Notes: generated from the letters alone by a model not told the origin. Numbered from the stretch's first letter, positions 15,326 to 60,144 are shown. The stretch is 64,000 nucleotides of DNA from Xylographa opegraphella (GCA_022813865.1 JALDZX010000016.1:310001-374000), one strand, 5' to 3'. Numbers and translations: made by a program.

Positions 15326-18300
15326 TTACAACCAAATGTCGCCACCTTCGCCCGCCACCCAACGTCTCCACGCTTCCTCATACGCATCTTCGAGATCGCG
15401 CACCCATCGCCTCGTGTCGAAGAGTGCGCTCGTCCACCGCGCTTCGTAGAGTATCTTTCTCAGTTCCGTAAGCCGGCAGGATAAACTTCCCCGTCGCTCT
15501 CGCTTTTGCAACGCAGCCGCCAATCCGCTTCCCAACTCTACAGCTCTGGTCTCATACTCCTCATCACTCGAGACCACGAGCTCTGCGGCTGCCTTTTCAC
15601 CTTCTGCGTTCTTGGGCAATGCCCCCTTGAGAATGGACGCGGCCATCCGCGAACACATCTTGTACTCGTACCGCGGAAACGTCAGAAGAGGGGTCCCGGA
15701 CCAGAGCACATCTGCAGCTGTGGTATGGGCATTGCACTCCGGTGTATCAAGGAACAAATCACAGACGCGTGCGCGAGATATGTGCTGATGTTTGGGCGCC
15801 ACATCGGTGAAGATGACGCGGGATGCAACTTCTGCACCGGCCCAGAGTAAAGCTGTCTGCCGTAGATTGGATTCGCCGAGATCGGGAAACCGGAGCAACC
15901 ACAAGATAGACTTGGGAATACGGGATAAAATGCGGAGCCAAGTCCTGAAGGTCGTTGGCTCAATCTGGGTGATTGATTAGTCATGAAAGCTTCAGGCAAG
16001 AGGGAAAACGGGGGTGTTGCCTTGTAAAGCTGATTGAAGTTTCCCAAGATGACGGTGTCATCTGGAAGTTCAGGGAACAGCTCCTTTCGCATCCTCCACC
16101 GCCGCCGCTGCTCCTCCGGCCAGCTAAGTTGCCCTTCTTGGGAATCTGGAGCACTCTGCCTGTGGTCGCAACAGAAGAATGTATCTCGTGTGTAGATAAT
16201 GTTCTCGCCGTAGACCCAATGCTCATGCTCATCGCTGTTGTTTTCGTCCTTGGTTTGATCCGTCACATCAACATTATTTCTCCATGGTCTCAGAGTTTGA
16301 GGCGGTATTGCGGTGGTGTCGGCAAGTAAGTAGTCGCACCATTCTGCACCCAATGTACCTGCAAATCCCATGAAAGACATCTGAATCGGTGCCGGGCGAG
16401 CTGCGAAGACTTCGTTGCGAGCACCACGGGTATACCCGTTAAGATTGATCAGAATATGAATCCCATCATCAAGGATTTGCTTCACCAGACGATCTATAGA
16501 CCACGTAGCAGCATCATAAAACGCAGGCGCTTCACGTTCGATCTGTTCGCGGTGGACTGAACTGTCGCTTGCTGTCGTGGCGTAGCAAACTGCCTTTACA
16601 CGAGCAGGATCGTGAAAGCCAAAGACGGACTGCATCAGGTGCGCCAAAGGGTGATTATTGAAGTCCGAGGACACATAGCCTACGTTGAGGTACTTGTTCG
16701 GTGGTGCTGGAGGATCGAATATCTTCTTCGGAAGCCATGGGGATCGAAGAGTTGAGCAAGATATTCGAAGTCCATTGCGCTGCGAAATCTTCCGAATTTG
16801 TTTCGCTGTAAGCGGACAAGTGAACGTATGAAATGGGAGGACAGTAGGAGCGCTCGGAATTGCCAGTGTCGATGGTAGTTGAGGGCGTGCGTAGCTCACC
16901 GATGAGCATGCCCTTGTCTTGACATATCTGTCCTGATAGAGCTGCCAACTAAGTCTCTTCGTCGCTCGTTCGACAAGTCGCACAACCTTTGCCCCTTCCC
17001 AGCTTGAACCGACCCAACTTGACAAAGCGGTCACCAGAGCGTGAGAATCACGCCGATCTTGCTTTTCAGAGTCACCATTGACAAGGCATTGGTTCATCAA
17101 TTTCTCCATGTCGATACTCTTGAGAATACCAGTACCCCAAGAGTTTCCGTCGCTCAATTGTTTATCCACAATAGCAACCACCCGCGCAATCCACCCGGTA
17201 CTATTGGTGTACGGAAGTTTGGCATCCAACAGCATGCCTTGTTCATCGACGTGCCAGCGATCCCTCTTACTGTTGCCAAAGTACATACCACCACGGCCCT
17301 GCCAGCTGCAGACGGAGTTAAGTGCATTGGCTAAGCCGCAAACGGCCTCCGCAAAGTCCGGGTTGGCATTTACCGCACGCTTGTAATACCCAATTGCATC
17401 ACTGACACGTCCTTGGTCTTTGACAGCATTTGCCAAATTGGCCAATGCAATATCGAAGTTCCCATCGCACGCAACAGCTTGCTCGTACATCTTAATCGCT
17501 GCGCCCAGCTGCCCAAGATCCTTGAGGAGACTCCCCAGATTCGTGTAAAGGTGAGCATGTCGTGAGTCGAGATTGAGTCCAAAGTTATAATATGCCAAGG
17601 CTAAACCGATACCGCTGCCAGGCAGGACGCCAGGAATTTTTGGGATCTGAGGAGGATTCAATCGGGCAAGAAATTTTGATGGGGCCGTTTGTTGGATACT
17701 GGCAAGCAGAATGCCTACGTTGTTGGCCGTCGAAGGGCTTGGCTGTAGGGAGAGGGACAAATAATACAATGCCAAGATATCATGAACCCCCGAGGCAGCT
17801 TCTGGACAACCAGTGGAAGCGCCAGTCGATGACATGCCATCCTGGTATATCTTCGCAAGAGAAAGTAGAGAGTTGCTCGTTGTGGATATAGCCGCTCTTT
17901 TGGCCTGTCCTTCGGGAACGGCTCGAAGTCCAGGAAGCTCTCCATGATGAGGAAACACCGATTTCGCCGTATTCAAAGCCATTTCTGGCAACAAAAGCAC
18001 CGAGTCGTAATTCCCAGGTTCTTCGTGTACGTCCTTGAGCGCAAATATTTCTCGTTCGAAAACCTTCAGTATCTGCTTGATCAAGCCACCGATACCTTCT
18101 GGTCTACCACCAGCACCAATCATAATAGCATCTTCAAATGCTTTGGCTGCTCCGGTATTGTTCCCTAGAGCATAGAGCATATTTCCCTTTGCATGTATTA
18201 ATGCGATCATCCTTCCGTTATCGACTTCCGGAATGCGATAACCACTGGAATGATGAGCAACAGAAGGTGTTGCCGAGACTGAGACACCACAAGCTAGGTT

Positions 18301-21705: not shown

Positions 21706-22581
21706 CGTACCCGGCATTGTTCAGGATGATCCTTTCTGGATGCAGCCGTCACGCTGCTCGATGGTCTTGGGATCGACACGGCAGCTTGCGCCATAGTTAG
21801 TGCAAACTGCATCTGTCTGATCGACGACGTTTGCTGTTTCCGAACCTGATTCACCGGCCCTGAAACCACTGCAATGCACCGATCTTGCGCTGCAGCATCT
21901 ATGTGTAATCGTCCACGCTGCCGACATGCAGTGACCTCTTTTATCTGCCTACCTTGCCTGGCACCCAATGTACTCAGCCACATGCACTGCATGTCCTTCC
22001 ACCACCCTGCGTCGCCATGCAGGAACGTCCGAATTCCTCCTCCGTCCTACTCTGGCATGCACGACGGTGTTACAAAGAGGTGCACAGCATCAGGATATGG
22101 TCATGTGCCTGTGAGCGATTGCTGCACTCCGACTACCAAAATACGAAGTCGGCTTGACCTTGTGTTCATACCAATTCTCATTTCGGGTGAAACGAGAATC
22201 TCCCACAGTATCAAGCAGCATGGGCATGACTTCACTCGGAACACAGACGAAGTGGGCAACGATGTTGTGGAATGATGAGATTTAGACCCAAAAGATGGAC
22301 CCCCACATCCACTCCAGAGGAAGAAGATGTCGCGGTGAGTAGTGGGACTTCCAAAAAGATATCATCTTCTTTGCACCAAAATAGGCCCAAACCATTGATC
22401 AATGCCAATCCACAAGGGAAAGCGGTAGGGGCCAGAGTGTTGGCAAAGTGGAGCAAGACACCACTGGGGTTTTCACGTTCTCACGTAGATCGGATTTGGG
22501 CTGACTTCATATGATCCCATGAATTGCATTAGTATGCTATGCAATGCGTGCCATGTTCCCATACGATTGCAAAAATAGACT

Positions 22582-26419: not shown

Positions 26420-27096
26420 CCCTGCTTATTGCCAGCTCTCCAACCAGTGCAGCTGCTTGCGTCCTTATGGGACTGACGTCTCCTAGCTTCACACGCAAAG
26501 GAAGGAAGAGTATGAAGTAGTCATGTAATTTCAATTCGCCCTTTGGTGTCAGTGACTCGGTGGCAGAAAGAAAATAGGTAGGATCAAGCCAACCGGCCAC
26601 ATATCTGCCTAGTATCGATTAGGTAAGGTGGACTTTCCTTAACTTTATGTCAAAATTCGTTACTCACGACTTCGTTTCTTCTACATCTACATTAGACGCC
26701 GGTAAACTCACATTACTGATGACAATCCTGAAGCTTCCCGTATCTTGATTGCTTTCGCGCTGAGCGTATATTTAGACTACCCATGGCTGGGCGCCTGACT
26801 TCGAAGGGTCGTTTCGATCCTCAGGAGAGGTTGGGAATCAGCAGAGGTTACATGTCCTTTTCATACTATCCGACAACCTGATACCTCCGTCTATAAAGCC
26901 GTACTGGTTGACTTTAAAGAGCTTGACAACGCTTTGATGGTGGTTCGATGTTTCCACCTATATCTATACCTTCTGTCATCTCAGCCTGTTGATAGCTGGT
27001 TTCAATCATTCTTAAATACAGACCTTCTTAGTAGGCTTAACATTGCAGAGTCCATTATCTAGGGGGTCACGTTGAATCTCTTGTACTACTCAATTC

Positions 27097-30550: not shown

Positions 30551-31722
30551 GGTTCCCAGATTGGCAATTCTACTGCAGTCGTCTGTAGCTAAGTTTGCTA
30601 GAGAAGTATTTTCACGAGGAAGCGAAGCTGAGTGAGAACTTGTATGTGAGCCGCTGCGGCCAGGTACCTCTATGCCACGAAAGTTTTAAACCCCATCATG
30701 GCGCTATTCAATTGTGAGTAATTCCACGTCATGAAGTTCTGCTCTTTCGCAAGAACCATGTATTATCCCAGACAAGAAGAATCCGTTTACTCTTCCATCA
30801 CATCGCATCCAAGAACATATATGTGGGAAAATCCTAGTCCTGCAAAGTACCTACGCTGCAGTGTTGAGTCACTTTTGAAACAAATTTCGCACTGATGCTA
30901 TGCTCTTGCTTCAGTCAGATCGTTTCTCAATGCTATTTACGCTACCTGCGCGCTCTCGATCGATTGTAGCAAGTCTGACATTTGTGATGTTAATATCATA
31001 ACCCGCGAGATTCGTTACCTTCATCTTTCTCTAGCGGTTTCAATAGCGTCCACGCTATTGCCGGATCCGGAGCCAGATTTAAAAATGGCTGAAAGGACAG
31101 GCAAGCCTGCCTTATGGCTTAGCGCGAGGTTCGAACGATCCTCAAAATGTGTCTTCACTTCTTTGAATGTCACGATCCTCTCCCTCTTCGCAGCTCTATT
31201 TCTCTCCCTCCCGCGCTCTCCTTTTGTCCTTGTAATTCTGTTTCTGTTATTCCTCTGGGCATAGCTGGAACTCCGAGTTCGATCCAATACGGCAGCCACC
31301 CCGTCTGTTAAATCCTGAAAGTGCTGTGCGTAGTGTGAACGTATTACACAACGGGACCGCTCACGCTATCGACCACATTCATAGTCGACTATTCTCTTTG
31401 GGGTCGCCACTGGTCTGGTTTCCACACAGGCAGCTCGGAATACCTATCTCGTCATTTCGGGTTCCTGGTCACCGTTATTCAGATACCTTTCTACAGCCCA
31501 ACGACTAATAACCTACCCTTTCAGCCCTGTCCACATATCTTAGTCTTTGAAACTCCTTTGAGGTCAGCAGGCACTGCAGGAGTCGTCGAGAAGCTCTATA
31601 GGTTGAATACGCTGCTTTTAAGAGAACAAAAGCAGTTTGACGACTTTGCGCACCCAAATCTCCTAGACATTTCGAAAACTGAATATCCCTCTTACAGCTT
31701 CTTCAAAACATATACCGCAAAC

Positions 31723-33693
31723 ATGTCGGCAAGCCATATCATTGGTAACCGGAACAGTACGCCTGAAGCTTCACATTCCAGCCTTCGCCCTCCTTCGTCA
31801 CGAAATGCCGGCAATGGCCATCATCTCCGTGCTTCTGCTGATATATCAGGGTTCCCGTTGTCTCCACTCGGCAATCGTAACATACGACCCTCTTCGGAAG
31901 TCTACTTTAGTCAGACACCGCAATCTCAAACCCAGAGCAATGTCGATGATGCCAGAGATAAAGCCGCACAGCAATGGATTGCTGATATCGATCAATATGA
32001 GAACACATTGGAGGAAATGGCTGCTGCTACTTTGGACCAAGATTTTAAGGACGAACTGAGTGCTATTGAACAGTGGTTTAAGGTCTTGAGTGAAGCGGAG
32101 AGGACTGCAGCCTTGTACGCTCTCCTCCAGCAGACTACGCAAGTCCAGATACGTTTCTTCATCCAAGTCTTGCAGGAGATGGCCAAAAATCATCCCATGT
32201 CTGGCGTACTTTCACCTGCGAACTTTGACGAGAAGGGTAAGTCACAATGTGACATGAACAACTCGATGAATCCCGCTTACATAACCTTAGATGCCATGTC
32301 CAGTCGTCTTAGCGATGCCATGAACAAGCTGAGCGTTGAGGGATCTCGGACTTCGTTTGGGCGCCCCCCTCCATCTCCCGGAAACAAGCGTAACTCAGGG
32401 CTTGATGTCAACACAATCAATGCCATGTTTCCCGACGCTGCAGCGGCCATAGCAAAAAAGAAGGCTGAATACACTCAACAAACTGGCAATGCACCAACTT
32501 CCAATCGCAATAGCGCTGTATATGTTGACCGCTCATCACTCGTAGCGCCCACTATCTCAGCTCTTGCTGAAGCAAAGGAGAATGCCGCGCAACCCTCGCC
32601 TGTACCTTGGGGCCAGCGTCCTGTGGAGCGTCCTAAATCGTCCTCTGGACCACAACCGATGGGGCAGTTTGCGCAACCACCACCTTCAGCGGGGCTCCGA
32701 TCTCCACGCCCGATGCAACTGTCTGGAAATTCGAACCTGCAAAGTACCAATATCAATGTGCCCGATCACCATGCTAGTGGCCATGAGTTGCCTATGCTAT
32801 CACCATACAACATGAATGCCAGCTGGGCTTCCATGACCAATACACCGATGGTACCTAATTTCAACACTCAACAGGCAACAACTCAAGCTGATATGGTTGC
32901 TAATGCCACGGCCATGAAACTGGCGGCACTATCAACTGTCAACAATCGAATTGCGCTTGATGACGTTCGCAAGTTTCGGCGGACCCGTTCGAACGACGGC
33001 CAAGGAAACGGAAACCAGATGCCTATGTCTCCCGGTTTGTCCCCTACCAACGTCCTTGTTGTGAATGAGAGCGGCCAGTTAGTTGGCAATGGGGCTTTAA
33101 ATAACCAACAGATGATGGCTCTGCAAATGCAGCACCAAGCTAGTCTTGGTGCTCAGCGATCGCGACCCAATTCTCCAGGGTTTTCCATGCAGACAGCGAA
33201 CCTCGGTGGCATGGGGTTTGCATCTCCGCAAAACAATGGCTACCTTGCAGCATATGATGGCTCATCTGGCTTGGTTGGTGGCATGGGCTCTCTAAACCTT
33301 GGCCAATTCGGTATGGCTCATGGCAGTGGTCATGAAGGATACATCTCGGATCACTCGGACATGACCCGAGGACGCTCTCCACGAGGAAGGCGTGGTACAT
33401 CAAAACCACCGGAGGATCCAACTGACCCCAGTCTTCTAGGCGACATTCCAAGCTGGCTTAGGAGCCTCAGGCTCCACAAGTACACGGACAATCTCAAAGA
33501 CATCAAGTGGGAGGACCTTATCGAGCTCGACGACAAAGGCCTGGAAGACCGCGGTGTCAATGCACTGGGTGCAAGAAGAAAGATGCTCAAGGTAATTGGC
33601 TCCCTTGTTGCTACGTTGCCAAACCTGTACTAATTCGTGACTTGACAGGTGTTTGAGCAAGTTCAAGAGGCCAAAGCGGCGGGAAAGCTCTGA
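31723..33693 (+). CDS. VTS1: Vts1/Smaug-family SAM-domain RNA-binding protein; 3 exons
   Basis: [40 protein letters not shown] and [21 protein letters not shown]...[17 protein letters not shown]; introns at about 32237-32290 and 33592-33648. Confidence 0.93.
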
Positions 33694-37135: not shown

Positions 37136-38676
37136 TCAAATACTCAGACTCAATCAATGCACAGTAGTGACCGTGCACCTGTAGGAGCAACAGCAACGCC
37201 CTTCGAGAGGAGTAGGCTCTGTCTTTGGAAAGGGATGACTGAGCCATGGCGGTCATATCGCACGGAGAGTTATGCATGATTTCCATCGGCGGAAGGCCAC
37301 ATTGTAGACTGGCCGGAGCCCGACGTTTTCAGCTTGAGAAGAGGTCTTGGGAGTTTGGTTATAAGACAGTCGATGTCCAACGCCGAAAGCGGTAATAAAA
37401 TACGCCAATGCTAAAACAGAAGATCAAAGTCACCCACCTCGCCGTAGCACTAGTCAAGGGCTCGGTGGACGATATGGACGCATATATACTTCCGATCGAG
37501 CCAGTGGACGTTCTCGGCAGAGCTGAGACATTCCAGGCTCGAGCGGAGGAAGGGAATGGATTCCACCTCCAACCGCACCCCTCTTGGGACATCAGACGAT
37601 TGAAGCGGCGCAGGGAAGGTAAATACAAAGGTTCAAACACATTCACGGTGAAAAGAGCTGTTGACAAGGGTTCGCGGCTAATAGAGCCAGTTCTCGCTCT
37701 TTACCAGAATCTATCATTTGCCCAAAGTCGGCAGATGTGAATGCTGTCACGAGGCTCCTGCTTTGAATTATTTTGACCATCGAGGCCATTATAGGATACC
37801 CGATTTGGCAATCACACGAATCAAACCCCGACATATTACAACGTACCTTAGTATCTGAAGCCTTCAGTCAGGTACCTACATTGGGAGGCAATTGACCAGC
37901 AGCACGGACCACATGCGTAAGGTAGAATACCATACCTAGACTAGCATCGCCCTGTCCGCCCGTGATTCGTGGTGGCGTCAAGGCGTTGAGGCGCCCGATT
38001 GGCGTGGACAGTGCAAACGCTATCTGGAGATGCGAGTATCGTGAGCTTGTGGGACGTTCAATAGTACATCGTCGTAGTAGTCTAGTCTTGCTGATACCCG
38101 GATCTCTCGTGCGGATGTCAATCTATCTGCCCTTCTCTCCCTCCCGCCGTGATCATCTAAATGATAACCCATCTACTACCTTTGCATCTCCGTAGACTAC
38201 CTTACGATGATTATCATCCAACGATACCTAGAGTGCAAGAGCTTGACGATCGTCGCTGTCAAGCCGAATTAGGCCGACTCGACCCTCCCCTCATTTGCCG
38301 ATCAGAGCGACATGGGCCCTGAAAGTCTATCCTCAGCCCAGCCTAGACTCCGCCGGAAGTGCAGATCGAAGTACGGCGTGCGTGCAAACGGTCTCCTCAA
38401 TTCCCACGCTGCAGCCGAAACTCACATCCTTCCCCCTCTGCCCCGTCCCCAGTTCGAGCTGAGTTGATGAGTCGAATACCTGGGTGTGAAGGTCGAGTAC
38501 ATGAGTAGATGCGTTTTCTCTGCCATGCTGTCTCACTGAGCTCTCCGTTAAACCAGCAAGCACCCTCGGTCCGCTTGCTGCGCCCACGACAAAACGTGGG
38601 GCTCTCACTTTTCTGCCGCGGCCTACAACCACACTCGTGGAGCAGAAAAGGCACGCCTGAACCTCCAGCATAGATT

Positions 38677-41600
38677 ATGCCCAACCCGCCTGCACAGCTA
38701 CTCAACGGCTATGGACCCGAACCCTCGACTTCCCCAGAACTGGAACAATTCTCAAGCTTGAAGCAATCGCTGTCGGCTTCTTTGACAAATGGCTTCCGAC
38801 ACCCCAAGCCACCGAATGGAGAGTACTTTGGTGCACAAAAGGCGGAAGAGCATTCCTCAATGCCCGTGAAGAATAGCCCGCCTCTATTCGTCAACATCCC
38901 GCAAGCGCGGAATGCGGCAGATATCGCACTCGCAGCTCTACAGCATCTTCCCACGCCAATCTTAGTGCTCTCGAGCCTAAAGACGGTGGTTCTGGCCAAT
39001 GAAGCTATCGGAAGATTGCTTGGTCTGACCGGAAATGATGCTGAGCCTATGTCCGGTGGAAGTGCGGCGGGGAATGATGTGGGATCGTTACGTGGACAAA
39101 CCTTGAGTCAGCTCGGCATTGACATAATACAAGACGGGCAAGCGATCTGGGTGAGCTGGGAGAGGTATCTCGATGATATAGCGGACGAGCTCGAAAACGG
39201 TGGCCAAGATATCGGTTACTCCGAACGGAACGATATAGCGAGACCTGATCACAAGGAAAATACCATCCAAAGCGCATCTACTACCCAACCCGGAAGGCCT
39301 ACCACTTTCCAGCGCCAGCCGCCCTTGACGAGGCGGAAGAGCCAGCAATCAGTATATGACACCGTGGTGGATGTTGTACTTACCTCGCAGTACATCACTG
39401 CGTCGACTACCCCGTCCTTCCGAAGCTCCAAGTCTTCAAACCATGACGGCCAAGTCAGTGCTAGGATGACAATCTCGATCTGGCAGCTAGAGGACCAGCG
39501 CTATTTCACTTTATCTTTCGCTAGCATTCCTAACAACACCTCTTCACCAGTGATACCTCGTGCCTATGCCGGTTCGCATACCCCAACATCAGCTCCCATG
39601 TCGCCGACTTCGCGGATCAGTCCTGCTGCCTTGGAAGAGTCAGTATCCTGCCCCAATTGTGGTGCTTGTGCCATATCTCTTCATCGAGAAGGGACCGGAA
39701 CGTCTCACACAATTTTCCCCTTCCCTTCACACGAAGTCTCTGACACTAGCAAGGGGACTTCCGGCCCTTTCCTTGCGACGTCTGGGATATCAAGCGGTGG
39801 GATTACACCTTCGATATTACAGAAGACGTGGAGGATGAAGGATGCGATACTGGATGCTATGGAAATTCCCGTTTTCGCCATGTGGAAGGACCAGAGTCTG
39901 ACCTTTCCAAATAAAGCCGCAATCCGCTTGTTACAAAGGCATATTGACCCCACAAATCAAGAATCGTACGACCTTCTATCCCGGACGAAAGCGTGGACCG
40001 AAGATTTTTCACGTGAGCTGAGTGAGGACGAGCATCCACTGGTTCATCTTTGTAAGACTCAGAAGCCAATCAATGGATGGAGAATCGGCATTAAAGATCC
40101 TCAGAAAGGTCGTATGGTATACGACTGCAGCGGTGAATGCTACTTTGATGAGAAAACGGGTGAATTCCTGGCGGGCATAGTTGCCCTCAAGGACGTCACT
40201 GAGTATACATCGGCTCTGAAAACGCAATCTGAGGAGAGCGAGCAGCAATTCGAGTTGATTTGTCATACAATGCCTAATATGGTAAGCAGAACTTTAATTG
40301 ACAGCCTTTTGCGCATTGGAAACGGAACTGATCATGTCGGTGTCTGGCTCTAGCTCTGGACTACAACCCCAGCAGGCATGCACGGTAGGTTTTCATTCAA
40401 TCCTGATCGGCTTCTTCAATGCTAAAACATTGTGCAGATTGGTTCTCGCGTCGATGGTATGACTACACGGGTCTCACTCCCAGAGAGTCTCTTGGCATGG
40501 GATGGCAAAGTCCATTCCATCCGGATGACATGGAAGAAACAAACCGGCGATGGCAACACTCACTGGCCACAGGGGACGAATACACCACTGAGTATCGGTG
40601 CAGAAGATACGATGGGCAGTGGAGATGGATGCTCGGGCGAGCACTTCCTCAACGAGATCCCAAAACAGGTAAAATTGTCAAATGGATGGGTTCCCTGAGC
40701 GAGTAAGCCATCAGCCCTCTAGTGTCTCTTATAGGAGTCTCATATCTGTCATAGTATCCACGAGTCGGTTGAGGCAAGACAGGCGGCGAAGCGTACGCGC
40801 GAGCAACTGCTAAATGTAATCAAGCATGCCCAAGTCACTGTCTGGGCTATCGATAGACTCCGGCAATTGACCTTTTTGGAAGGAAATCTCATGTGGGATC
40901 CGGACGAGAAGTATCTCAATGAAGATGTCCTTGGGAAGAACATTTACGAAGTGTTCGGCCAGCACCAAGGAATTGTTGACTTGCCTCATTACAGAGCGCC
41001 GATTGAGGACATTTTGAATGGGAAAGCCACGGAGCAGATCGCCGAACATCATATAGACGGTAATGGGCGCTGGCTTCGTACCAGATTTGTCCCAATATTG
41101 GGTAAGAAATGTGGCGGAGGGGCGGTAGACGAGACTTTCGTCGATGGGGTGGTAGGCGTGTCAATGGATGTTAGTGAAATAAAAGAACGTGAAGCGGAAC
41201 TTCAATCGCAAGAGAAGGAAAACAGCAGGCTTTTGTCGGCCGAGATAGCCGCAAAGGAGGCGAGCCGGCTCAAGAGTCAATTCCTTGCCAACATGAGTCA
41301 TGAAATCCGAACACCAATAGCTGGAATCATAGGTAGCTCACCATGTTATTTGGGAAGTCCCAAGCTGATATCGTGATCCAGGTATGGCAGAACTTCTCGT
41401 GGACACGACTTTGGACTCGGAACAGCGTGAGTTTGGGGAAAATATACAAAGGTCTGCGAACGGCCTCTTAACTGTGATTAACGATATTCTGGATCTTTCG
41501 AAGGTGGAATCAGGGCGATTGGACATTGAAGAGGTCCAGTTTAGCCTTTCGGTTGTTGTCCGAGATGTCTGCAAGATGATGTCGTTCGCTGCCGAGCGCA

Positions 41601-43294: not shown

Positions 43295-43941
43295 GGCGCA
43301 TGGGGAGTGGGTTGGTGCATGGATAGATAGTCTCGGGCTTTTCAAGTGTTTCATCGAAAATTCAAGGTGTCTGGTGTGATTTTTCCTGTGCGTTTGCATG
43401 GCCTGGTCTGGGAGCATTAGCATTGGCGTCTGGGAGTGGCTGGCTGCGTACATATCTACTCCGTCGGCGGGTTTCCGCTCCATCAGTAAGTAAGCGGGGC
43501 ATCGTGGCATGGCATGGCATGGCGGGGACGGCAGGGCAGGGGGTGGGGTGGAGTGGGAATATTGCATCTTGGGCCTATCCTCCATCATAGCTACGAAGTG
43601 CATCACCACCAGCGAATGAGCGCGGGTCATAGAGCAGATAAGTGTGTAGGTGCGGCGAAGGGATGAGAAGTAGCTGAAGGGGGTGGGTTGGTTGGTATGG
43701 ATAGATATACGCTACGATCAGACTGCATTCATCTAATCCGATCTGGTACAGGCTAATGCGTTCGGCACCGCTGTATCTACCTCACTGTACGAACCTATAA
43801 AAAAAGTCGCACGCGCTATATACCTACACCGGTTTTTTTAATGATCCCCTACAAGCTTCCAGCCTCGGTACTTATTCAACACGCCTACCCCATACACCCG
43901 GTCCCCACGTTCCCTGCCCCGCCCTGCCCAGTCTGTCTTCA

Positions 43942-46151
43942 TCACAGCTCCCCATGCCTCACGCCCTCAGCCTTCGCCTTGGCAGCCGCAGTCGCGCGCT
44001 CGACCTTCTCGCCCACGACGGAGGTCACGCTGTCGATTTTCTGGCCGACCCGCTCACCCAGATGGTCCGCCGGGGCGGTGTTGCCGGCCGCGGTGGCGGA
44101 GAGGCTGGACGCAGCGGAGGAGGCGCTGTCGGTGGCGGTGGAGACGGCGCTGGAAGCGGCGGAAGCGACGCTCGAGGCTGCGGAGCTGGCTGCGGATGGG
44201 GCGCTCGAGGCGGACTCGCTGGCGACGGAGGTGGCGCTTGAAGCGGACTCGGCCACGACGGAGGTCACGCTTCCGGCTTTCTCGGCGACGGCGGAGCTGG
44301 CTGTTGAGATGTTGGCACCCACGACGGAGGATACGCTGGAGGCTTTTTTGCTGGCTGCGGACGCAGCGCTTGCAGCAGATTCGGCGATGATGGAGGTAGC
44401 ACTGGCGATGGTTTCGCCGACGCTTTCGGTTGCGCTTGCGGCGGTTTGGCCGGCTTGGGATTTGACGCTTTGAACTTTGTCGGCAGCGTTCTGGGCTGCT
44501 TCACTGGCCATGTTGGTGGCTTCTGCTGCTTGGTCTTTTACTTTGTCTGTCATGCTACTGGCGGTCTCCGCGGCTTTCGAAGTGACACTCTCCACCGTCT
44601 CGCCCACGACAGACGTCGCGCTCTTTGCTGACTCGGTCATATCTTCTGTGCTGACCAGGCCTTCCGGCAGTTTCTCTTTCTTGCCCTCTCCTAGTCTCAT
44701 AGCATCAATCCAATCCTCGACTGCGTTCTTGCCGAAGCCTTTGTGGGCATCGTAGCCTCGCCACCACCATCTTCGTCCATTGACGGCGACTAATTGGATT
44801 CCTTCCTCGAGTCCTAACCCTTCCCTCAAAACCGTGTTGCCCTCGTTGGTTGATGAGACTGCAAAAAATGGGAAGAGATGCGAGCCACGGGCTTTGTGTT
44901 TCTCACTTATACTGCTTAAGGAGGCCATAGCGGAAGCGGCAGACTCGGGAAGCTGGTTGGCGTCATCGTTCATTGGGTTAGCCGGAAGAAGTGCAAGGAT
45001 GCAGGTTGGGGTCTTGGGACCCAGGCAATGTGCGCGAAGTTCTGCTTGCGTTGAGAGAGTCTGTAGTGGAGGTGCAACGTCTGGCACTGCGACCGGAACA
45101 GGCGCGTCTTCATCGGTAGCGATAGGATCGGGTGAAGGTGTCGCTCCATTCGGTTCTTCGACGGTGATTGTCGTAGCTGACGCCGCGGCAGCCGAGCCTT
45201 CAGATGCTTTATGAGCAGCGGACGCGGCAGAGAACGTTGAGGAGTCAGAGGATGCCTTATCCTTCGCTATGGGCTTTTGCTTGCTCGCTTTCGAGTCTTG
45301 GAAGCCTGTACCAATAGAAGCGTACTGAGAAAGGAACTCTGCCATAGGCGTTTTGGCCATCTCGCCGGAGTATGTCACAGCGGGAGCCGTGCCACCTGGG
45401 AGGACGATGAGGGTGGGATATTTGGTTATACCAAAGGTGGAGACGGCGGTTGTATCCTTGTCCCTAATTTGCGCGAAGTGCATATTACCATAGAACTCTC
45501 CTGCGAGAACCTTGATAGTAGCACTTGTCGTTCCCTTGTTGCTGAACAGGATGGCTTTGGCTGTTGAATTATCATCGTCAAGCCATTTGTCGAGTTCCTT
45601 GTCCGAGACCCGTGTAACATGATTAGGTATTATGTCTTTCACAGCTTCAACGATTCCTGCAACTGTTCTAGCTCCTTTGTAGTCCACCCGGATCGACTTC
45701 CCCTTCTTCAGCGTAGGCCGGACAGTTTTAAGCGTTGGGAAGCCTTTGATTCCCATACTACCGCAGAATGCCTTGTTCTCTTCATCGTCACAGTTGACAG
45801 CCGCAACGTTGGCCAGACCCTCAAGACTTTTGGCCGCTTTCTCATAGGCTGGCTTCAGGTTCTTGCAGTGCCCACACCAAGGTGCGTAGAACCTACAAGG
45901 TGGTCAGCACTGGGGCACCCATTGGCATGGTAGGGACCTACTCTACTATCTTCAAGAGTTATTAGCGCAATCCTTAAATGCTAGTAAAGAGTTCAACGTA
46001 CTGAAGCTTTATTAGAGTTCGTGATGAGCTTGTCAAAGTTCTTAGCATCCACCTGAAGGACGGAAGAGCCTTTGGAGTAAATGCTCTCAGCGTTCACTGA
46101 TGATAAAGCAATTAGAGCAGCAAAAGCTGCAAATGTCACGGGGTGATGCAT
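43942..46151 (-). CDS. ER protein disulfide isomerase-related protein (MPD1/PrpA-like) with an 11-mer repeat tail ending HGEL
   Basis: Signal peptide MHHPVTFAAFAALIALSSVNA, IVE/FYAPWCGHCKNLKPAYEKAAKSLEGLANVAAVNCD, GIKGFPTLK; 8-nt microexon 45949-45942; C-terminal HGEL*. Confidence 0.9.
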
Positions 46152-46516: not shown

Positions 46517-48053
46517 ATGGTAACGGTTGTTCCGGCAGCGTTGAAGTCTACGGACATCACACGCTTTGCGATACGAGCTGCGCAGGTTGAGAAGGCGAAA
46601 CCTCCCATAGCTTATTGGTGTTAGTTTGTGCTACCCACCAAGGGCTTCATCGTGGCTAAGTAGCTTAGGCAACTACTGGATTGTCAATCAGATACTTGCC
46701 AAAGGGTTGCACACCAGCGACGATGAAAGCACAACCTACACGATGGGGCTCATGGACAAACTCGAACAGGTTTGACTGAAAGCCTTCAGTGACGTTGAGC
46801 CACTGACCATTTTCAGATGAAGGCAGAACATTCACAAGATGATGCAATAGTGGATGATGTTGCCGGGCAGGCATATGTTGAACAGTTCGGTCTCGAGACT
46901 TTCCAAAGAGGCCATAATGCTATGAGCCAAAACAAAGTGACAAAGTACGACAAACTTAGTGACTTGCAACGAAGTGTCCTAACAAAATCGCAGACAGACG
47001 GCTGACACATTTCACGCCGCCGCAACTTTCCTCGAACTTGATCATATTTGGGGTCCTTTGGATCCTGATATAGCTGCCAAAATTAAGTACGCTAAGTTCC
47101 ATGCGCTGCGAATAGCGAAAGCTTTCAAGGCTGGCGAAGATCCAAATCTCTCCAATCCCGCACCTGAATCGCCCAGCAATGAACCTCAGCCCCTGGATCC
47201 CAATGACCCCGATGTCCAGGCACTAAACGGGCAGGGTTCCACTATAAATGAGCATGCCAAGCTTCAGCCATTTGTCGAAGAGATCCCGGACGAGCATCAT
47301 AGATTGCAGTCCAGAATAGCACGGGCTTCCTCATTGGATCAGTCGCTACATCCCTCCAGAGCAGCATCGCTTCCACGAACATCAAGTCGAGATCTTCTTC
47401 CACCAAATGAAGCTCCCTCTCCTCAAACTTCGAACCCCGAGAATTTTTATCAAGGTGGACCCAATGAAGAAGTCTCTCCTCTCGCTCCTTCCACTACAGA
47501 TAGAGGAACCTCGGAAGGCGGAGGATACTTTCCTATGGTTCCCCAGGAGTACTCTGATAGCAACCGTCCCGTGCTACCTGGAGCCCCTTTCATAGAACCA
47601 GATACCTCTAATGAATATCACACTTTGAAGTCGCCTTCACTGCAGTCACAAGCTCCCAACGACTTCGAGATACATTCGACAAGCTTTTCTCAAGAATTTC
47701 CGAGCCACCCAGACCAAGTTTTCCAACATATCCAACCATCCTCATCGCAGTTCAGTCCTTCCATTTCACAGACTCCTATACATCCGGCAGACCCTCCGCC
47801 GCCACCCAACTTTAGAACCCACGTGCCACACCAGCACGCGCAAGGCCCACCGTCTGTCCATACATCACAAAGACAACCTATCTCGCAGTATACGTCGCAA
47901 CCTGTGGTTCAACATTCGTATTCTACAGATGAAGAAGCCGTCATGAAAGCCCAGAAACATGCGCGGTGGGCGATATCGGCGCTCAACTTTGAAGATGTAA
48001 ACACTGCGGTGAAGGAACTAAGGGGTGCATTGGAGTCCTTGGGGGCAGCGTGA
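46517..48053 (+). CDS. VTA1: Vta1 (ESCRT / Vps4 cofactor); 4 exons
   Basis: N-terminal MIT-type region (KPPIAYW/CNYWIVNQIL; KIKYAKFHALRIAKA) and C-terminal VSL AQKHARWAISALNFEDVNTAVKELRGAL; three GT-AG introns restore the frame. Confidence 0.93.
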
Positions 48054-48504
48054 AGGGGTCATGGTAGTATCAGGTGTGATTTCATTGTACTCTACTTCAA
48101 GATACCCATAATTCAGTATGTTTTGACGTCATCGCATTGCCTGCTGTAACAGCTGAGCTCGTTGGAAGTTGCAGAAGGTGTATAAATGGCAGTTCATGAT
48201 AGCTACACTGTCGCGGAAAATCCTTTACAGAACCATCTCTTTAAACCATCACAAGCATAGAAGCATAATATGTGAATATTAAACGTGTTTGGATATGGAA
48301 ATACAAACTTCTTCTTTGTTCATCTTTAACAGCAAGATAATTCCAGCAGTGTCCTTTTATTAGTAAAGGCTATCTCTATTTTGGTATACCGGAACTTTCG
48401 CCACTGCAAGCATTGATTTGGACCGGTCTTTGAGTGGTGAATGAGCCTTTTTGCAAACAACAGAGGGTATGAGTTAACAAGAAGCGGCAGTAGTATACAA
48501 AACA

Positions 48505-48631
48505 CAGAGGTTGGCTCACTGGGAGCACACACGACCTTAATCCTGGATGACCATAGAATACCTCGGTTGGCTATCGGTCGTTCAGGGGTAACGGTTCGTG
48601 ATTAGCCAGGGTTCGACTCCCCGACCTCTGC
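48505..48631 (+). ncRNA. tRNA-like Pol III gene (atypical tRNA, pseudo-tRNA or tRNA mimic) with a 54-nt hairpin insertion; anticodon position reads TTA
   Basis: Acceptor stem CAGAGGT/ACCTCTG, A-box-like TGGCTCACTGG (48512-48522), anticodon stem CACGA/TCGTG, B box GGTTCGACTCC (48610-48620), T8 run downstream. Confidence 0.65.
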
Positions 48632-48642
48632 ATAACATAACC

Positions 48643-48650
48643 TTTTTTTT
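48643..48650 (+). terminator. Oligo-T Pol III terminator
   Basis: T8 starting 12 nt after the tRNA-like 3' end, followed by a further T5. Confidence 0.6.
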
Positions 48651-49088
48651 CGTTTTTCATTTTCTGATCCACTGAGTTGTCATACTTAGATATCTAGTTC
48701 TCTTTTTGTACGGACTCAGAAGCGAGGATAGAGCTGGTGGGAGTAGTTTCTCAGGGGCATATGCATTATGGACATTTGTCACCAGACCCTGGTCATCTGT
48801 CGAAGGTGAGTTCATGGTACAAGCGTTCGGTAATAGACAATTTAGAGCTTGGGCTGGGCCTCGGTCACCTCGCTTACATAGCCGCGAGATCACAAGATCT
48901 TTGTACCTTCTCGATTCACGTCTTACGACTCTACGTCAACTTGGACCACTTCACCCACAGCTAGACCCATACAAGGCTGTGTCTATCAATCTCATCTGTG
49001 TTCGGATGACAAGTAGGCCTTTTACGGTGAGAAGAGAGCTGGCTTGACAGGGTCAATATTTGCTACGTAAGTAGCAAAGCACATTAGG

Positions 49089-50402
49089 ATGACCAGCTTT
49101 TCACCAACAGTTGATGCTACAGATGGCAAGGTATCAAGCATAATAACAGCACCCCAGAATCTCTACAAACCAGATTTGCCGAGACAACACGATAAAACCT
49201 CAACTGAGACAATGTCTCATGATCCACTTCTTGCAAGAATTGCTGCTGTCAAGAAGAACTCGAGTGTCCGACCAGCATATCTTGATTATAGGCCAAAACC
49301 CTTCCCTGGCACAGACTCAAGCAGCCACCGGGACCGGACTCACCTGGACAAATTAAAATTCGAAATCTTGGATGATCCACTCGCAGTAGAGCCACGTCTC
49401 CAATTTGGCCGAGATCTCGGAGTACATGTTTCCGTACCAAAGATCCTGAGAAGCACAAGGTCAAAAAGATCGCTTGATCTTGCTCAAAGTCTTCACGGTA
49501 GAAGGAGAGGAACTGTCACAGGAAGTCCTCAAGCTACAACGAAGAAGCAGAAGCCACCTGCTACAAGTGCCAAAGAGCCCTTAATCAACTCACCTCTTGA
49601 TACAAGAAATACCTCGGTCACCAGACTGTCAGTTACAAATCCTTCTTCAACAGCGGCCAACAATGCGTATCTAGGGTATTCAGTATCACATGGTACGAAG
49701 CGTCAGGATACTCCTGAAGCTATCAATAATTTCAGAAAACGTGCAAGGCTGGATCCCAATCTCACAGCTACTTCAACCCCACAGATTGCTCCACCTGTTA
49801 CACAGTGGAACAATATTGCAAGGAACGCAAGGAGAGCATCTGACGGCGCACCGGGGTTCTTCATACCTTCCATGACTGGCAATGGAAGGCCGCGCCCCAA
49901 TGGACGCCTGGCTACGACTGGATCTGTACACCATGACGACACCATCATTACGATCGATGACAATTCTGACAGCGCTGAAGTCACTGATCATTTATCTCAA
50001 ATTACTGGCCCGAATGCTCCAAGTAGCACCAAGTTTGAGGCTAAAGTGACGATAAAAGCGCAACGACTCTCAAGCGAAATCATGAGCAAGACGACTCTTC
50101 TGGTCACAGCGACCAATCTGCACGACATGGCCCCCGTTACGGTCAAGTTGTCGTGCTTCAAGGGTTTCCGCAGTTTCCTGGATTTCCTCGCAGACGAGTG
50201 TGTGCTTGGAGACCTTTCCAAGAAAGTCACCGATGTGAGTGCCACATACACCTGGAACGGGCGAAAACATAGGTTCCGGAAAGAGAGGTTAGATGTGGAT
50301 TGGCTAGCATTCTGTAAGGTACTGAGAGACGCCTTTCAGACGAACCCGACACTCACCAAACAGGGCTCTGAAGTGGAAATGCTTCTGCATGTTGCAGTAT
50401 AG
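49089..50402 (+). CDS. Hypothetical protein (437-aa ORF; disordered N-part, globular-looking C-terminal ~110 aa); 5' structure uncertain
   Basis: Long ORF in moderate-GC sequence with no long antisense shadow; possible upstream splice sites at 48807-49122; no family recognised. Confidence 0.65.
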   Translation: MTSFSPTVDATDGKVSSIITAPQNLYKPDLPRQHDKTSTETMSHDPLLARIAAVKKNSSVRPAYLDYRPKPFPGTDSSSHRDRTHLDKLKFEILDDPLAVEPRLQFGRDLGVHVSVPKILRSTRSKRSLDLAQSLHGRRRGTVTGSPQATTKKQKPPATSAKEPLINSPLDTRNTSVTRLSVTNPSSTAANNAYLGYSVSHGTKRQDTPEAINNFRKRARLDPNLTATSTPQIAPPVTQWNNIARNARRASDGAPGFFIPSMTGNGRPRPNGRLATTGSVHHDDTIITIDDNSDSAEVTDHLSQITGPNAPSSTKFEAKVTIKAQRLSSEIMSKTTLLVTATNLHDMAPVTVKLSCFKGFRSFLDFLADECVLGDLSKKVTDVSATYTWNGRKHRFRKERLDVDWLAFCKVLRDAFQTNPTLTKQGSEVEMLLHVAV

Positions 50403-53015
50403 ACAGGGCAATGACTTTGAACGAGGTATCGACCGTTACGAAACCGAGGCAACATATCAAGGATCTATATCAGACGAAGTTCTAGAGAAAGAAACAGTTG
50501 TGGAGTGGACAGAAGCTTGGCTAGATCGCCTGTTGAAATCGCTATTTACCCTTGTCGAGAAATTTTGTAGAGCTTCCGTACTTCTGTCTACAGACACTGG
50601 CCTTGCACTTCTCACGGCCGCCACGAACCTTCTGTGTCTTCAATGCGGACAGAAACAATCTGGCCGGGAACCACCAGATTATTTCTCCAACGTTTCTTGT
50701 GAGTCCCTTTAATTTAACGTTCATGGTGACTAATAGAATCTCGATATTGCTTGAGCACCGCCTAAGCTTTCGATATGTCTCAGCTGCGCACCGCCATCGC
50801 AGACCCACATTTCAATGCTATTCTTCAATCTTCATGCACGTCGCTATCTACCTCGCTCTCGCCCCACGGGTTCTTCCAAGAGCGCCACATACAGTCCCCT
50901 CCCGCCTCGGCACAGCCTGCCCACCTCCCCTCTTCATCCTCATCATTTCCCAACCGCGTCTCAACCCCATACACTCGTATACACGGAAGCTTACAAGCCC
51001 ATTTGCTGTCAACCAGCTCTGCTACATTACACAGAAACAACAAGCTCATTGTCCCGAGCTGAGCATTGAAGTGAGATTACGATCCAACAGTGGGGTCACT
51101 GAAAGCCGAGCAGATCGTTTCGTAATTCCCAATTAGTGACCGCGCGAGGGTCTGGGTGGTCTCTTGGGTGCCTGAGGCGAGTGGCAGGGCCAATTTACAA
51201 GAAGTCGTCTAGCAATACTATGGTCAGCGATCGAAGACAGATGCGATATAACAGCAGACGGTGATTCCTATTTGTCGGGGTTCGGCTTCTGAGAAAGCCG
51301 CAGCCTTGCTGAGGTACCGCGACGCAGCGCCAGGATGCAACCACTTTACATTCGTCGACTTCGGTCCTCCTATCTCGACTTTATCGGCTCGCACGACATT
51401 GCTTGATATCTCTCAACATTGTCTTCGTCAGACTGAAACAAGGACATGAGTGGTTTTAATGAGGAGAGCACTGGTGAATAGTGGAGCCGTAGTCATGCTC
51501 TATGTACAGCCGTGCTGAGTCACACGATCTTAATGATAACAAGCAAAACAATGGAGCATGCTGAGAAGGTCATCGGTACTTGGATCCAGAAAGACTCTTA
51601 TGAAGTGCCTCTGGCATTGCTGTGAGGGATTTGTTACAGGATGCTATGATAGGCCTAATGTTTCCAATCTTCGTTGTCGAGGCTCTGAATAGTGATAGTG
51701 AATAGGATTACTGGAGGCTCATTGGTTGCTTACAAAAGCAAGAAGACGATTGGAGGATTCTGGCGTTGTCAGCGTTGGATCTCAAACAAGTTTCAGCCTT
51801 GTTGGCAGCAGGAGCCGGTGACATCATCGACAATGATCCCAGAGCGTGAGAACGTGCAGCAATATTCACGCCGGCTCCCAAACAATGAGCATCAGATATT
51901 GCTTGGATGTGTAGCAGATACAATCACTATGGCATCGGACTTTTCAAGTGCTGATCGGAATGACGAGATCCCGATTGTCATGCTTCCGACGGTGGTCCAT
52001 GTTTCATGCACGGTATTCGCGCCCGTTTCGTGGCTCCCATTCCCAGGCCTCTGGAACGGCTCAGACGATGTGATACTACGCGCTTGTTCAGCTTCTTGCT
52101 TTCTTGAGCAGATGCTGCTGTGCTCCTATACGACTAGCCGTGCGCGATGATTCCGTCATGAGGAAGTTATCCATATCGACCGTCATTTTGCAACCACGGT
52201 GTGCTCCAGCCCTGGCGTGTTGGGCAATGCGACCCTATCAAAGCACACCTTCACTTCCCCCCTTCATGCAACTGCTGCAGCTCCCACCGGGAGGAGACTG
52301 CGCTCTCGATGTGCTTCGCTCCATCACGCTGCAGAGCACGGTTGCGGCATGAGAAAGAATGTGCTGGGTGAGCTCGCCGTTCGAGCTGCAGCAGCCATTC
52401 CTCGAGCGTGCAGCGTGCAGTGTGCAGTAGGCTCGCGACGACGAGTTCACTGAGAGGAGTGCATGCCGAGTCACACCACAGCATGCATCGACCGTCGCCG
52501 TCGTGCCTATCAGCGCCAGTGTGCCAACCTGGACGCTTGACCCTGCTCCATGAGGGTTCTCGCCCCAACGCTGTATCAGCAGCTGGTTGGCGCTTAGAAG
52601 CTGCTCGGTCGCGTTGATTCGCCAGAGCGCTGCAACACCAACGAAACCCTGTTCCCCTCCTCCGTCGGCCCCATTCACACCTCGTTCCTCTATAATATAG
52701 GCGCTCGTACTTCATCAACGGTCTGCTGCTCGCTCTCGTCGTCGGTTTGATCAGTCGCTGTCCAGCCCAATTGTGCTTTACGTTTCGTGTCTCAATTGTC
52801 CTTGATTGGCTGGCCCAATTCCTTCCACCTACTACCGTCCTCAAAGTTTGCCTTGCTCGCGCTGCCGTTAATTTATATATTGTTCATCGACCTCTGTTGA
52901 TCAGAATTGCCCAGCGTTATACAGTTTCCACGCTTGTCACTTGTGTGCAAATTTCACCAACACATCCGAGATCAACTCCCATTACAAATCAGCAAAACAG
53001 CACAACACCATCAAA

Positions 53016-58495: not shown

Positions 58496-60144
58496 CTACC
58501 TCCGCACCCACCCCCCAACGCCCAACACCCCGCCATCGGCCCCCCGCTCATCGAGCCCCCACTTCCGCAGCGCCCGCACGCCGAGCGCGCTCGCCCAGCC
58601 GGCCTCCCACATCTCCAGCCCGGCCCACGCGATCATGGCCGCGTTGTCGGTGCACAACGCCGGAGGGGGCACGACGATCTGCACGTGCGGGAAGCCGCGG
58701 GCGGTGAGGAAGGCGCGGAGGCTGAGGTGAGGTATAGGAGTTAGCGGGAGGTTGGGAGGGTGGAGAGGGTATTGAGAGATAGGGGGAGGGGGGGAAGAGG
58801 GGCAGAGAGGTGGATGGAGAGATCGCGATGGGGTTACGAAGTAGGGATGGACGCAGGGGTTTCGAGGGCTGGTTAGAGGGCGGGGGAGACGTACACGGCT
58901 CTGAGGAATCTGTTAGCCGCTACTCCGCCGCTGACGACGAGCACTTCTGGTTGCGGTGTCGGCTTCCCGGTAGTTGCGTTCTCTTCGTTACGGGTTCCGA
59001 TATTCTGGAACGCTATGACTACTCGCTCGGCCACGTGCTCAAACGCCACGCGCATGGCCTCTCTTGCGAGGTACCTCCGCTCTTGGAACCCCATCTCCGG
59101 GTCGGTTTCGGTGATCCGCCGCACCGCGCTGTCGAGCCCGCTGAAGCTGTATTCCATGCGGGTACTGCCTTTCCCTCCCCGGGTTTCGGCAAGAGGGGAG
59201 CCAAGAGACCATCCATAGGGCGTAGAATTGCGGGTGATAGATTCGCCCCGTGTAAGCGGTGGGTGGTAGGCATAGTCCGAGTCTCCGTTTGGGAAGCAGA
59301 AGATCTCAAGTAAGCGGCCGTAGGAGATGTTAGCATCATTGGAGGCGATAACGGCCGGGGGAAGGATGACCCGCGCGATTTTGTCGATGAAGTCTCCGAG
59401 AGCGATGTCGGTGGTTGTGGCTAGAAGAGGGTGCTGGGTCAGGGAAGTGGAGTGTAAGAGGAGGGTGTGCCCTCCAGAGAGCAGAACGGAAAGAAAGGGG
59501 AACGGTGGAAATGGCTTGTGTGAGGTGCTTCTTGGGGGCGAGCTGAGCGCGGACACAAGGCGCGGTGTGAGAGCGTGCGCTTGCATGTGGTTTACCCCAA
59601 GCAGAGGGATCTGCCAAGCGATAGCAAGACCTTTGGCAGTATCGAGGCCGGTGGAAAGGGAGGAGCGCATGCCGGGGCCTCGAGTCACGGAAACGAAGTC
59701 GGGTTTGCGCTTCTGGACGTGGCCATCACAGACAAGGATTGCCGAGGTGGACAAAGAGGCATCGTCCACGACACCAGGCAGCGAGAGGAGGCTTTTGGCA
59801 ATCAGGGTACCAAGGCTGCTTTGATGGGAATCAAGGGCTGTGAGGGGGTGTATCCCGCCATACTGCCTGTTGTCTGCTGTAATTTTTTCATGGAAATGAA
59901 GAGTTGCCGAAGGATGGTCTTGAACACCGTCGTGTTTCTCAAGAATGGCCACAGATGTATCATCACTGCGATTTTGTTAGCTCTGGATCGGATCTCAGAC
60001 GCAGGGCTCTAGAATGGAGAAGATAGACCATGATGTTTCAATTGCTAATGTCAACAATGGTCTTCGTGACACCCACAGACCAAGAGCGCTCTTAAAACCA
60101 GAAGAGACAAGAGCATTATGGCGGAATTTGGTCAGAGACTGCAT
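58496..60144 (-). CDS. QRI7: Mitochondrial t6A synthase Qri7/OSGEPL1 (Kae1/TsaD family); 3 exons
   Basis: Basic presequence-like N-terminus, LTLAIETSC/DDTSVAI, YGGIHP, VTRGPG, GVNHMQAHALTPRL, LLSGGHT, SFSGL, VVSGGVAANRFLR, LCTDNAAMIAWAG. Confidence 0.92.

Follow-up and report, generated by a model that had tools for sequence, protein, structure and literature searches.

A tRNA-shaped gene with UUA at the anticodon position and a hairpin insert in Xylographa opegraphella: tRNA relic, structured RNA or UAA reader?

Does a tRNA-shaped gene with UUA at the anticodon position read UAA codons, does it give an RNA with another role, or is it what is left of a former tRNA gene? The question is raised by a locus of Xylographa opegraphella that lies in the window, i.e. 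the whole stretch of 64,000 nucleotides that was analysed (GCA_022813865.1, JALDZX010000016.1:310001-374000). The window contains one tRNA-shaped gene, at 48505-48631 on the plus strand, with a hairpin insert and UUA at the anticodon position; its parts are listed in Table 1. A sequence-only reading of the locus had described a 7-bp acceptor stem, an A-box-like sequence, a B box, a T arm with one mismatch, the stem CACGA/TCGTG and a T8 run, and all of these were recovered at the same positions. The deviations from a normal tRNA that it had listed (C33, C15, a shifted D arm and a variable loop of 6 nt) are likewise all present.

Table 1. Parts of the tRNA-shaped element, with positions counted from the first letter of the window
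Feature	Position	Strand	Details
Acceptor stem, 5' strand CAGAGGT	48505..48511	+	7/7 pairs with 48624-48630; C1 pairs with G72
A-box-like sequence TGGCTCACTGG	48512..48522	+	U8, A14, C15, G18 G19; 10/11 against the consensus
D arm, two registers	48514..48528	+	shifted GCTC/ACTGG/GAGC or canonical GCTC/ACTGGGA/GCAC
Anticodon stem, 5' strand CACGA (positions 27-31)	48530..48534	+	5/5 pairs with 48596-48600
Anticodon-loop letters C32 C33 U34 U35 A36 A37	48535..48540	+	UUA at the anticodon position
54-nt insert at the canonical 37/38 intron site	48541..48594	+	hairpin 48541-48556/48571-48587
U38 (T48595) and anticodon stem, 3' strand TCGTG (39-43)	48595..48600	+	from sequence and fold
Variable loop ATTAGC, 6 nt	48601..48606	+	the Rfam alignment has an insertion here
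T arm CAGGG/TTCGACT/CCCCG	48607..48623	+	A50·C64 mismatch; 4/5 stem pairs; holds the B box
B box GGTTCGACTCC	48610..48620	+	full match to the consensus
Acceptor stem, 3' strand ACCTCTG, and discriminator C73 (C48631)	48624..48631	+	7/7 pairing
T8 (48643-48650) and T5 (48653-48657), putative Pol III-type terminator	48643..48657	+	12 nt past the discriminator (11-nt trailer)

The tRNA ancestry of the element is beyond chance, since ARAGORN with introns allowed gave a single call in the window, exactly at this locus, and no call in 40 dinucleotide-preserving shuffles of the 64-kb window, since neither strand of the window has a second match to the B box, and since the Rfam tRNA model (RF00005) aligned over its full length, model positions 1-71. 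Within the A-box-like sequence the sole mismatch to the consensus is C15. Canonical tRNAs have a purine at position 37, a pair between purine 15 and pyrimidine 48, G18 G19 and T54 T55 C56, and in class I tRNAs the variable loop is 4-5 nt long. The element has A37, G18 G19, T54 T55 C56, U8, A14 and A58, and it departs from canonical elongators in C33, in C15 together with C48, and in the length of its variable loop. A further T5 run is found on the same strand at 48448-48452, 53 nt upstream of the tRNA-like gene.

The element is also a poor tRNA. With its default settings, without introns, ARAGORN called nothing in the window. A check with Rfam, which had been proposed along with the first description of the locus, went against a sound tRNA: RF00005 gave it 19.0 bits, where the gathering score is 29 (E 0.14 in a search of 251 nt), and the element was absent both from the gathering search of the whole window and from a search of 14 kb at E<=10. 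Since the alignment passed over the complete anticodon arm, treating it as a local insertion of 71 nt, a spliced form would score 19 bits or more. Relaxing the ARAGORN threshold to -ps80 gave 131 calls across the window, which were set aside as noise. At a slightly relaxed threshold a second call appeared, a tRNA-Leu(caa) with an intron of 22 nt at 38702-38814 on the minus strand; it is probably a false positive, since it lies inside an open frame of 559 aa on the opposite strand (38674-40353). Rfam also matched two H/ACA snoRNA families defined in yeast, snR32 with 46.1 bits (gathering score 45) and snR80 with 41.9 bits (gathering score 40), at 26682-26855 (+) and 22280-22452 (-) of the window.

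The deviations read from the element are C33, C15 and C48 with no 15-48 pair, the register of the D arm, the 6-nt variable loop, the A50·C64 mismatch and U38. The run A36-A37-A38 is the signal for i6A37, and U38 would remove it. According to the excerpt of PMC5041475 cited here, U33 is almost invariant, C33 is known only in many eukaryotic initiator tRNAs, and G33 is found in the tRNA-Ser(CAG) of Candida, the reader of the reassigned CUG codon. The D region reads GCTCACTGGGAGCACA, preceded by U8 G9, and can be paired in two ways. The shifted register, offset by 2 nt, has four of four pairs and a 5-nt loop and is followed by a 3-nt linker, ACA; the canonical register keeps two of its four pairs, C11·A24 and U12·C23 having failed. 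Constrained folds gave -55.2 kcal/mol for the shifted and -45.7 kcal/mol for the canonical register, i.e. 9.5 kcal/mol in favour of the shifted one, and in one constrained fold U8 and G9 can lengthen the shifted D stem.

Counted in the canonical register, 3 of the 21 stem pairs of the element are broken, namely A50·C64 and the two pairs of the D stem. There are 7-8 deviations in 73 nt, 42 of these 73 nt lie in stems, and a uniform scatter of changes would break a similar number of pairs, so that no clear excess of intact stems is seen. On this point the sequence-only reading has to be divided. A tRNA-derived gene with Pol III-type boxes, a T-run, UUA at positions 34-36 and an insert at 37/38 is supported, but the preference for a tRNA mimic or a UAA-reading tRNA over decay, which leaned on the intact stems, is not.

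The register of the anticodon follows from counting CACGA/TCGTG as positions 27-31 and 39-43, which places UUA at 34-36 and starts the insert at 37/38. Sequence reading and stem count here agree with the earlier assignment of C32 C33 T34 T35 A36 A37 followed by 54 inserted nucleotides. Removal of 48541-48594 in silico leaves a sequence of 73 nt, which ARAGORN calls tRNA-Stop(tta) and whose MFE structure is a cloverleaf of -25.7 kcal/mol. ARAGORN does not discriminate between splice sites, because 53 of 300 in-silico splice variants were called (52 besides the canonical one), with many different anticodons; the canonical stem count alone was therefore used. The program's own model of the locus has an anticodon stem ACGAC/GTCGT, an intron of 34 nt inside the anticodon 'tat' and a variable arm of 25 nt, and was rejected because its constrained fold reaches -19.5 kcal/mol as against -55.2 kcal/mol for the cloverleaf with the rod. 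A fold like that of tRNA-Sec was also tried and dropped; the 7/5 geometry of acceptor and T stems, the lack of a long variable arm and the anticodon all misfit.

Folded as RNA, the whole element has an MFE of -55.5 kcal/mol (z -4.21, none of 200 shuffles as good), and the structure is made up of the acceptor stem, the D hairpin GCUC/GAGC, part of the T arm and one long rod. The MFE fold reproduces the hairpin of 16 pairs, three of them G·U, with one bulge, here assigned to C48575, and also the pairing of TAA back to TTA that the earlier description had proposed. TTA 48537-48539 pairs with TAA 48589-48591 and CC 48535-48536 with GG 48593-48594, and the rod is composed of the 5-bp anticodon stem, CC/GG, UUA/UAA, a 1x1 loop and the 16-bp helix, nearly continuous over about 26 bp. 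Alone, the rod (48530-48600) folds to -33.1 kcal/mol with z -5.39 and none of 200 shuffles as good, and the insert alone to -24.0 kcal/mol. The reverse complement of the rod reaches only -22.3 kcal/mol, as against -33.1 on the plus strand, and the minus strand of the whole element has z -2.21, as against -4.21. On the plus strand the 16-bp hairpin has three pairs that are not Watson-Crick, each of them G·U and none A·C. This bias is the sole hint of selection at the RNA level, seen post hoc and on three pairs.

Whether the insert behaves as an intron can be judged in part from what is described of pre-tRNAs. Canonical introns are 6-133 nt long, and the splicing endonuclease measures its distance from the tRNA body, as a ruler (PMC4090602, section 5). 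The insert of 54 nt at 37/38 agrees in position and length with such an intron. In the part of PMC10275265 cited, eukaryotic tRNA introns are complementary to N33-N35 or N34-N36, the cleavage sites are single-stranded, in a bulge and a loop, and in the A-I pair C32 or U32 joins the antepenultimate A or G of the intron and extends the helix. In the element N34-N36 pair with 48589-48591, which gives the complementarity between intron and anticodon, and the A-I pair is lacking: C48592 occupies the antepenultimate position of the intron, and the partners of C32 and C33 are G48594 and G48593. At the 3' splice site the fold has just 1-nt bulges (U48595 and C48592) and a 1x1 loop, in line with the earlier remark that no 3-nt bulge is obvious there. 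The missing A-I geometry does not imply that the insert is retained, since pairing of anticodon and intron is no prerequisite for splicing and no defined local motif is required (PMC4090602, section 5). Splicing of the 54-nt insert is possible, and not assured. A C/D-box snoRNA within the insert was considered and rejected, as GATGA is present and CTGA is absent inside the insert.

The use of UAA in the window bears on whether the code is changed. There are 37 stop-to-stop frames of at least 200 aa, which end in TGA (19), TAG (9) and TAA (9). The Pfam test took seven of the nine TAA-ending frames, the two omitted being antisense to longer frames, and five of these seven have Pfam family matches. 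In two of the seven the C-terminal domain model finishes just ahead of the TAA. One is a Vts1-like RNA-binding protein (31339-33633, +), whose SAM domain runs to profile position 65 of 66 at residue 756 of 764; the other is the C-terminal fragment of a GT41 glycosyltransferase (15326-15976, -), where profile position 543 of 543 is reached at residue 195 of 216. UAA thus looks like an ordinary stop in the window, which fits the standard code. Normal UAA stops argue against a code change; they say nothing on weak read-through or suppression. Pfam also recognised a fragment of a TsaD/Kae1-type tRNA t6A enzyme at 58873-59976 (-).

Plus-strand genes lie on both sides of the element: a VTA1 homologue, with its last exon at 46983-48053, has its TGA stop 452 nt upstream, and a frame of 437 aa (49089-50402) follows after 458 nt. 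The VTA1 exon is 100% identical to an NCBI protein of Xylographa opegraphella; the next matches are from three other Xylographa species (83, 81 and 79%), Lambiella (58%) and Trapelia (55%). Judged from its sequence, the host is a lichen-forming ascomycete. Five frames across the element were looked up exactly in a protein collection and none is present, a negative that is clean for the ATG-start frame only, the other four starting with GTG and possibly having been read as V where the frame list had M. Further upstream, a minus-strand frame of 604 aa (43942-45756) has a long, repetitive C-terminal half rich in alanine and serine, and an alanine-rich frame of 210 aa (43841-44473, +) lies antisense to it.

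No direct or inverted repeats flank the element within 47000-50500, and the 64-kb window has no second copy, the best other blastn match being 14 nt long. In metagenomes the pattern of D arm plus B box found two loci, both chance matches: at one (L001) the first half of the pattern lies upstream of an unrelated tRNA of bacterial type, and the other (L002) has no tRNA shape. In sequencing run X1 one contig covers 46500-50500 with no differing letter at a mean word depth of 161, though this run may be the window's own source and so not independent. Runs X2 and X3, searched at 80% likeness, matched five and two short conserved pieces of VTA1 coding sequence; being too distant, they gave no match at 48108-50500 and hence no comparison of the element.

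Taken together, we read the element as a tRNA-derived Pol III gene that has degenerated into a pseudo-tRNA or tRNA-gene relic and does not decode, and we give this reading slightly less than an even chance. The ancestor would have been an intron-containing class I tRNA gene that has since drifted from a working tRNA. TFIIIC may still bind the intact B box and the near-intact A box, Pol III would begin transcription a few bases before 48505 and terminate in the T8/T5 run, and RNase P and RNase Z could trim the ends, since both the acceptor arm and the T arm are intact. Excision of the 54-nt insert by the splicing endonuclease may or may not follow; if it does, a 73-nt RNA with UUA would result. 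Because of C33, the missing 15-48 pair, the out-of-register D stem, the 6-nt variable loop and U38, this RNA would decode poorly or not at all, with little effect on termination at UAA. If the locus has a role today, it would act as a weakly transcribed tRNA-like gene and not as a decoder.

What is described elsewhere is consistent with a tRNA relic. Suppressor genes with a TTA anticodon were predicted by tRNAscan-SE in 21.65% of the eukaryote genomes sampled, so that a predicted TTA gene is not rare (PMC9858662, in excerpt). Yeast has weakly transcribed relics of tRNA genes, among them ZOD1, from an ancient tRNA-Ile, and the YGR033C locus, from a tDNA-Arg ancestor (PMC5356446, in excerpt), and low tRNAscan scores, below 55, suggest pseudogenes in the account excerpted from PMC12168002. 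Several features speak against decay. The acceptor stem (7/7), the anticodon stem (5/5), the B box and the terminator are intact, the 16-bp helix is kept, and a cloverleaf is still the MFE structure once the insert is removed in silico; in a long-dead gene more damage would be expected. The UUA may be old and not a fresh lesion, because the UAA of the intron pairs perfectly with it, which would take two changes from Tyr(GUA) or Lys(UUU) and one from Gln(UUG).

A rival reading is a selected, tRNA-shaped non-coding RNA in which the rod of about 26 bp takes over from the anticodon arm and would be the working part. We think this unlikely, while giving it real weight. The acceptor, D and T parts would provide both the promoter and what RNase P, RNase Z and CCA addition need to act, and the rod would stay unspliced or be released as a structured piece of 54 nt, perhaps to bind a protein or to yield a small RNA. 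The unusual stability of the rod and its better fold on the plus strand agree with this, as do the non-canonical geometry of the splice site (C48592, 1-nt bulges) and the change of translation-specific positions alongside retained processing handles. Against it, the excess of intact stems is statistically unclear with 3 of 21 pairs broken, long structured introns, like pairing of the anticodon with the intron, are ordinary features of pre-tRNAs, and neither the window nor the metagenome scan held a second copy or family member. The perfect segment of 16 bp is also short for a Dicer substrate. Precedents in fungi are one microRNA-like RNA of Neurospora, made by Pol III from a tRNA precursor in a manner that needs RNase Z (PMC3547838, in excerpt), and the 'tRNA-like transcripts' of Pol III in yeast, given as of unknown function in the cited part of PMC5356446. 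Splicing that can do without a defined local motif (PMC4090602, section 5) weakens the argument from the splice site.

A broader proposal joins conservation with expression: the element would be conserved in this lichen-forming group of fungi and expressed as a tRNA-shaped Pol III RNA kept for a role other than ordinary decoding, either as an unspliced RNA of about 130 nt with a 26-bp rod for its anticodon arm, a protein-binding or small-RNA-generating module set on tRNA processing handles, or as a UAA reader crippled by C33 with programmed low read-through. This we consider distinctly improbable.

A working but weakened ochre suppressor, spliced at 37/38, charged and reading UAA at a low level that C33 keeps tolerable, is also improbable. 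The pair C1-G72 is a hallmark of eukaryotic tRNA-Tyr, and the element has it; tRNA-Tyr has A73, where the element has C73. In favour of a suppressor, UUA follows from the canonical count, and ARAGORN's tRNA-Stop(tta) call and the cloverleaf fold were both obtained for the spliced form. Against it, the element scores 19 bits with Rfam, and C33, the lost 15-48 pair, the D register, U38 and C73 would be expected to oppose efficient charging and decoding. The use of UAA also speaks against it: UAA closes frames right after complete C-terminal domains in two of the seven tested, and its frequency matches that of TAG (9 and 9 of 37 frames). Further points in favour of the suppressor come from the literature. 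An insert of 54 nt falls within the 6-133 nt range, with cuts set from the tRNA body by the ruler mechanism (PMC4090602, section 5), and pairing of N34-N36 with the intron is a described pattern (PMC10275265). Genes for tRNA-Tyr almost always bear an intron, and intron-containing tY(UUA) suppressors function in yeast, as far as the excerpt of PMC12168002 goes. An altered position 33 also accompanies the reassigned CUG reader of Candida (PMC5041475, in excerpt).

Two further readings have little in their favour. tRNA-like heads with altered loops are typical of SINEs, but the element is very improbable as the head of a tRNA-derived SINE or other dispersed repeat: the T8 run comes 11 nt after the tRNA-like part and leaves no SINE body or tail, no other copy is found in the 64-kb window, and no repeats flank the element. 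Nothing was found in favour of assembly or sequencing errors in what would really be an ordinary sense tRNA, and this reading is barely credible, as several independent changes would be needed to restore a normal tRNA and the X1 contig, possibly the window's own source, is identical over the locus.

The outcome matters in different ways. If the element is a decayed tRNA copy, it concerns annotation alone: such a gene should be kept out of counts of suppressor tRNAs, and no change of the code in lichen fungi should be deduced from it. Should relatives turn out to retain it with compensating changes, a fungus with the standard code would have either one of the rare natural readers of a stop codon, restrained by C33, or a new Pol III RNA of tRNA shape that bears a rod where the anticodon arm would be. 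A literature search that was not aimed at lichen fungi returned no paper on such an element in them.

Among known systems, the UUA suppressors of yeast tRNA-Tyr are single-base mutants of a normal tRNA with U33, A38, A73 and a short intron, and they share C1-G72 with the element. The S. cerevisiae tY(UUA) suppressor, mentioned in PMC12168002, has in common with it also UUA and an intron that follows position 37 and is complementary to the anticodon. The element differs in C33, U38, C73 and its 54-nt rod, and is set apart by description and not by sequence comparison. The cloverleaf of ZOD1 is far less complete than that of the element. ZOD1, the YGR033C locus and the six tRNA-like transcripts TLT1-6 are likewise degenerate tRNA-derived loci that keep Pol III promoter elements; they are defined by occupancy of Pol III and TFIIIC together with transcripts, whereas the element is known from the sequence of its promoter boxes and terminator (PMC5356446, in excerpt).

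The Sup(TTA) predictions of tRNAscan-SE (PMC9858662, in excerpt) resemble the element in being tRNA-shaped, with a TTA anticodon, in organisms with the standard code; the element is distinguished from them by C33, the out-of-register D arm and the 54-nt hairpin insert. With the canonical bulge-helix-loop pre-tRNA (PMC10275265 and PMC4090602, both in excerpt) it shares an insert at 37/38, a length within the described range and complementarity to N34-N36, and it differs in having C, and not A or G, as the antepenultimate base, a 1-nt bulge at the 3' splice site and a rod of about 26 bp. Neurospora milR-4 is also a fungal Pol III transcript that joins a tRNA fold with a hairpin. In milR-4, however, RNase Z cuts off the tRNA moiety to give the pre-milRNA (PMC3547838, in excerpt), and its hairpin is not an insert in the anticodon loop, as it is in the element.
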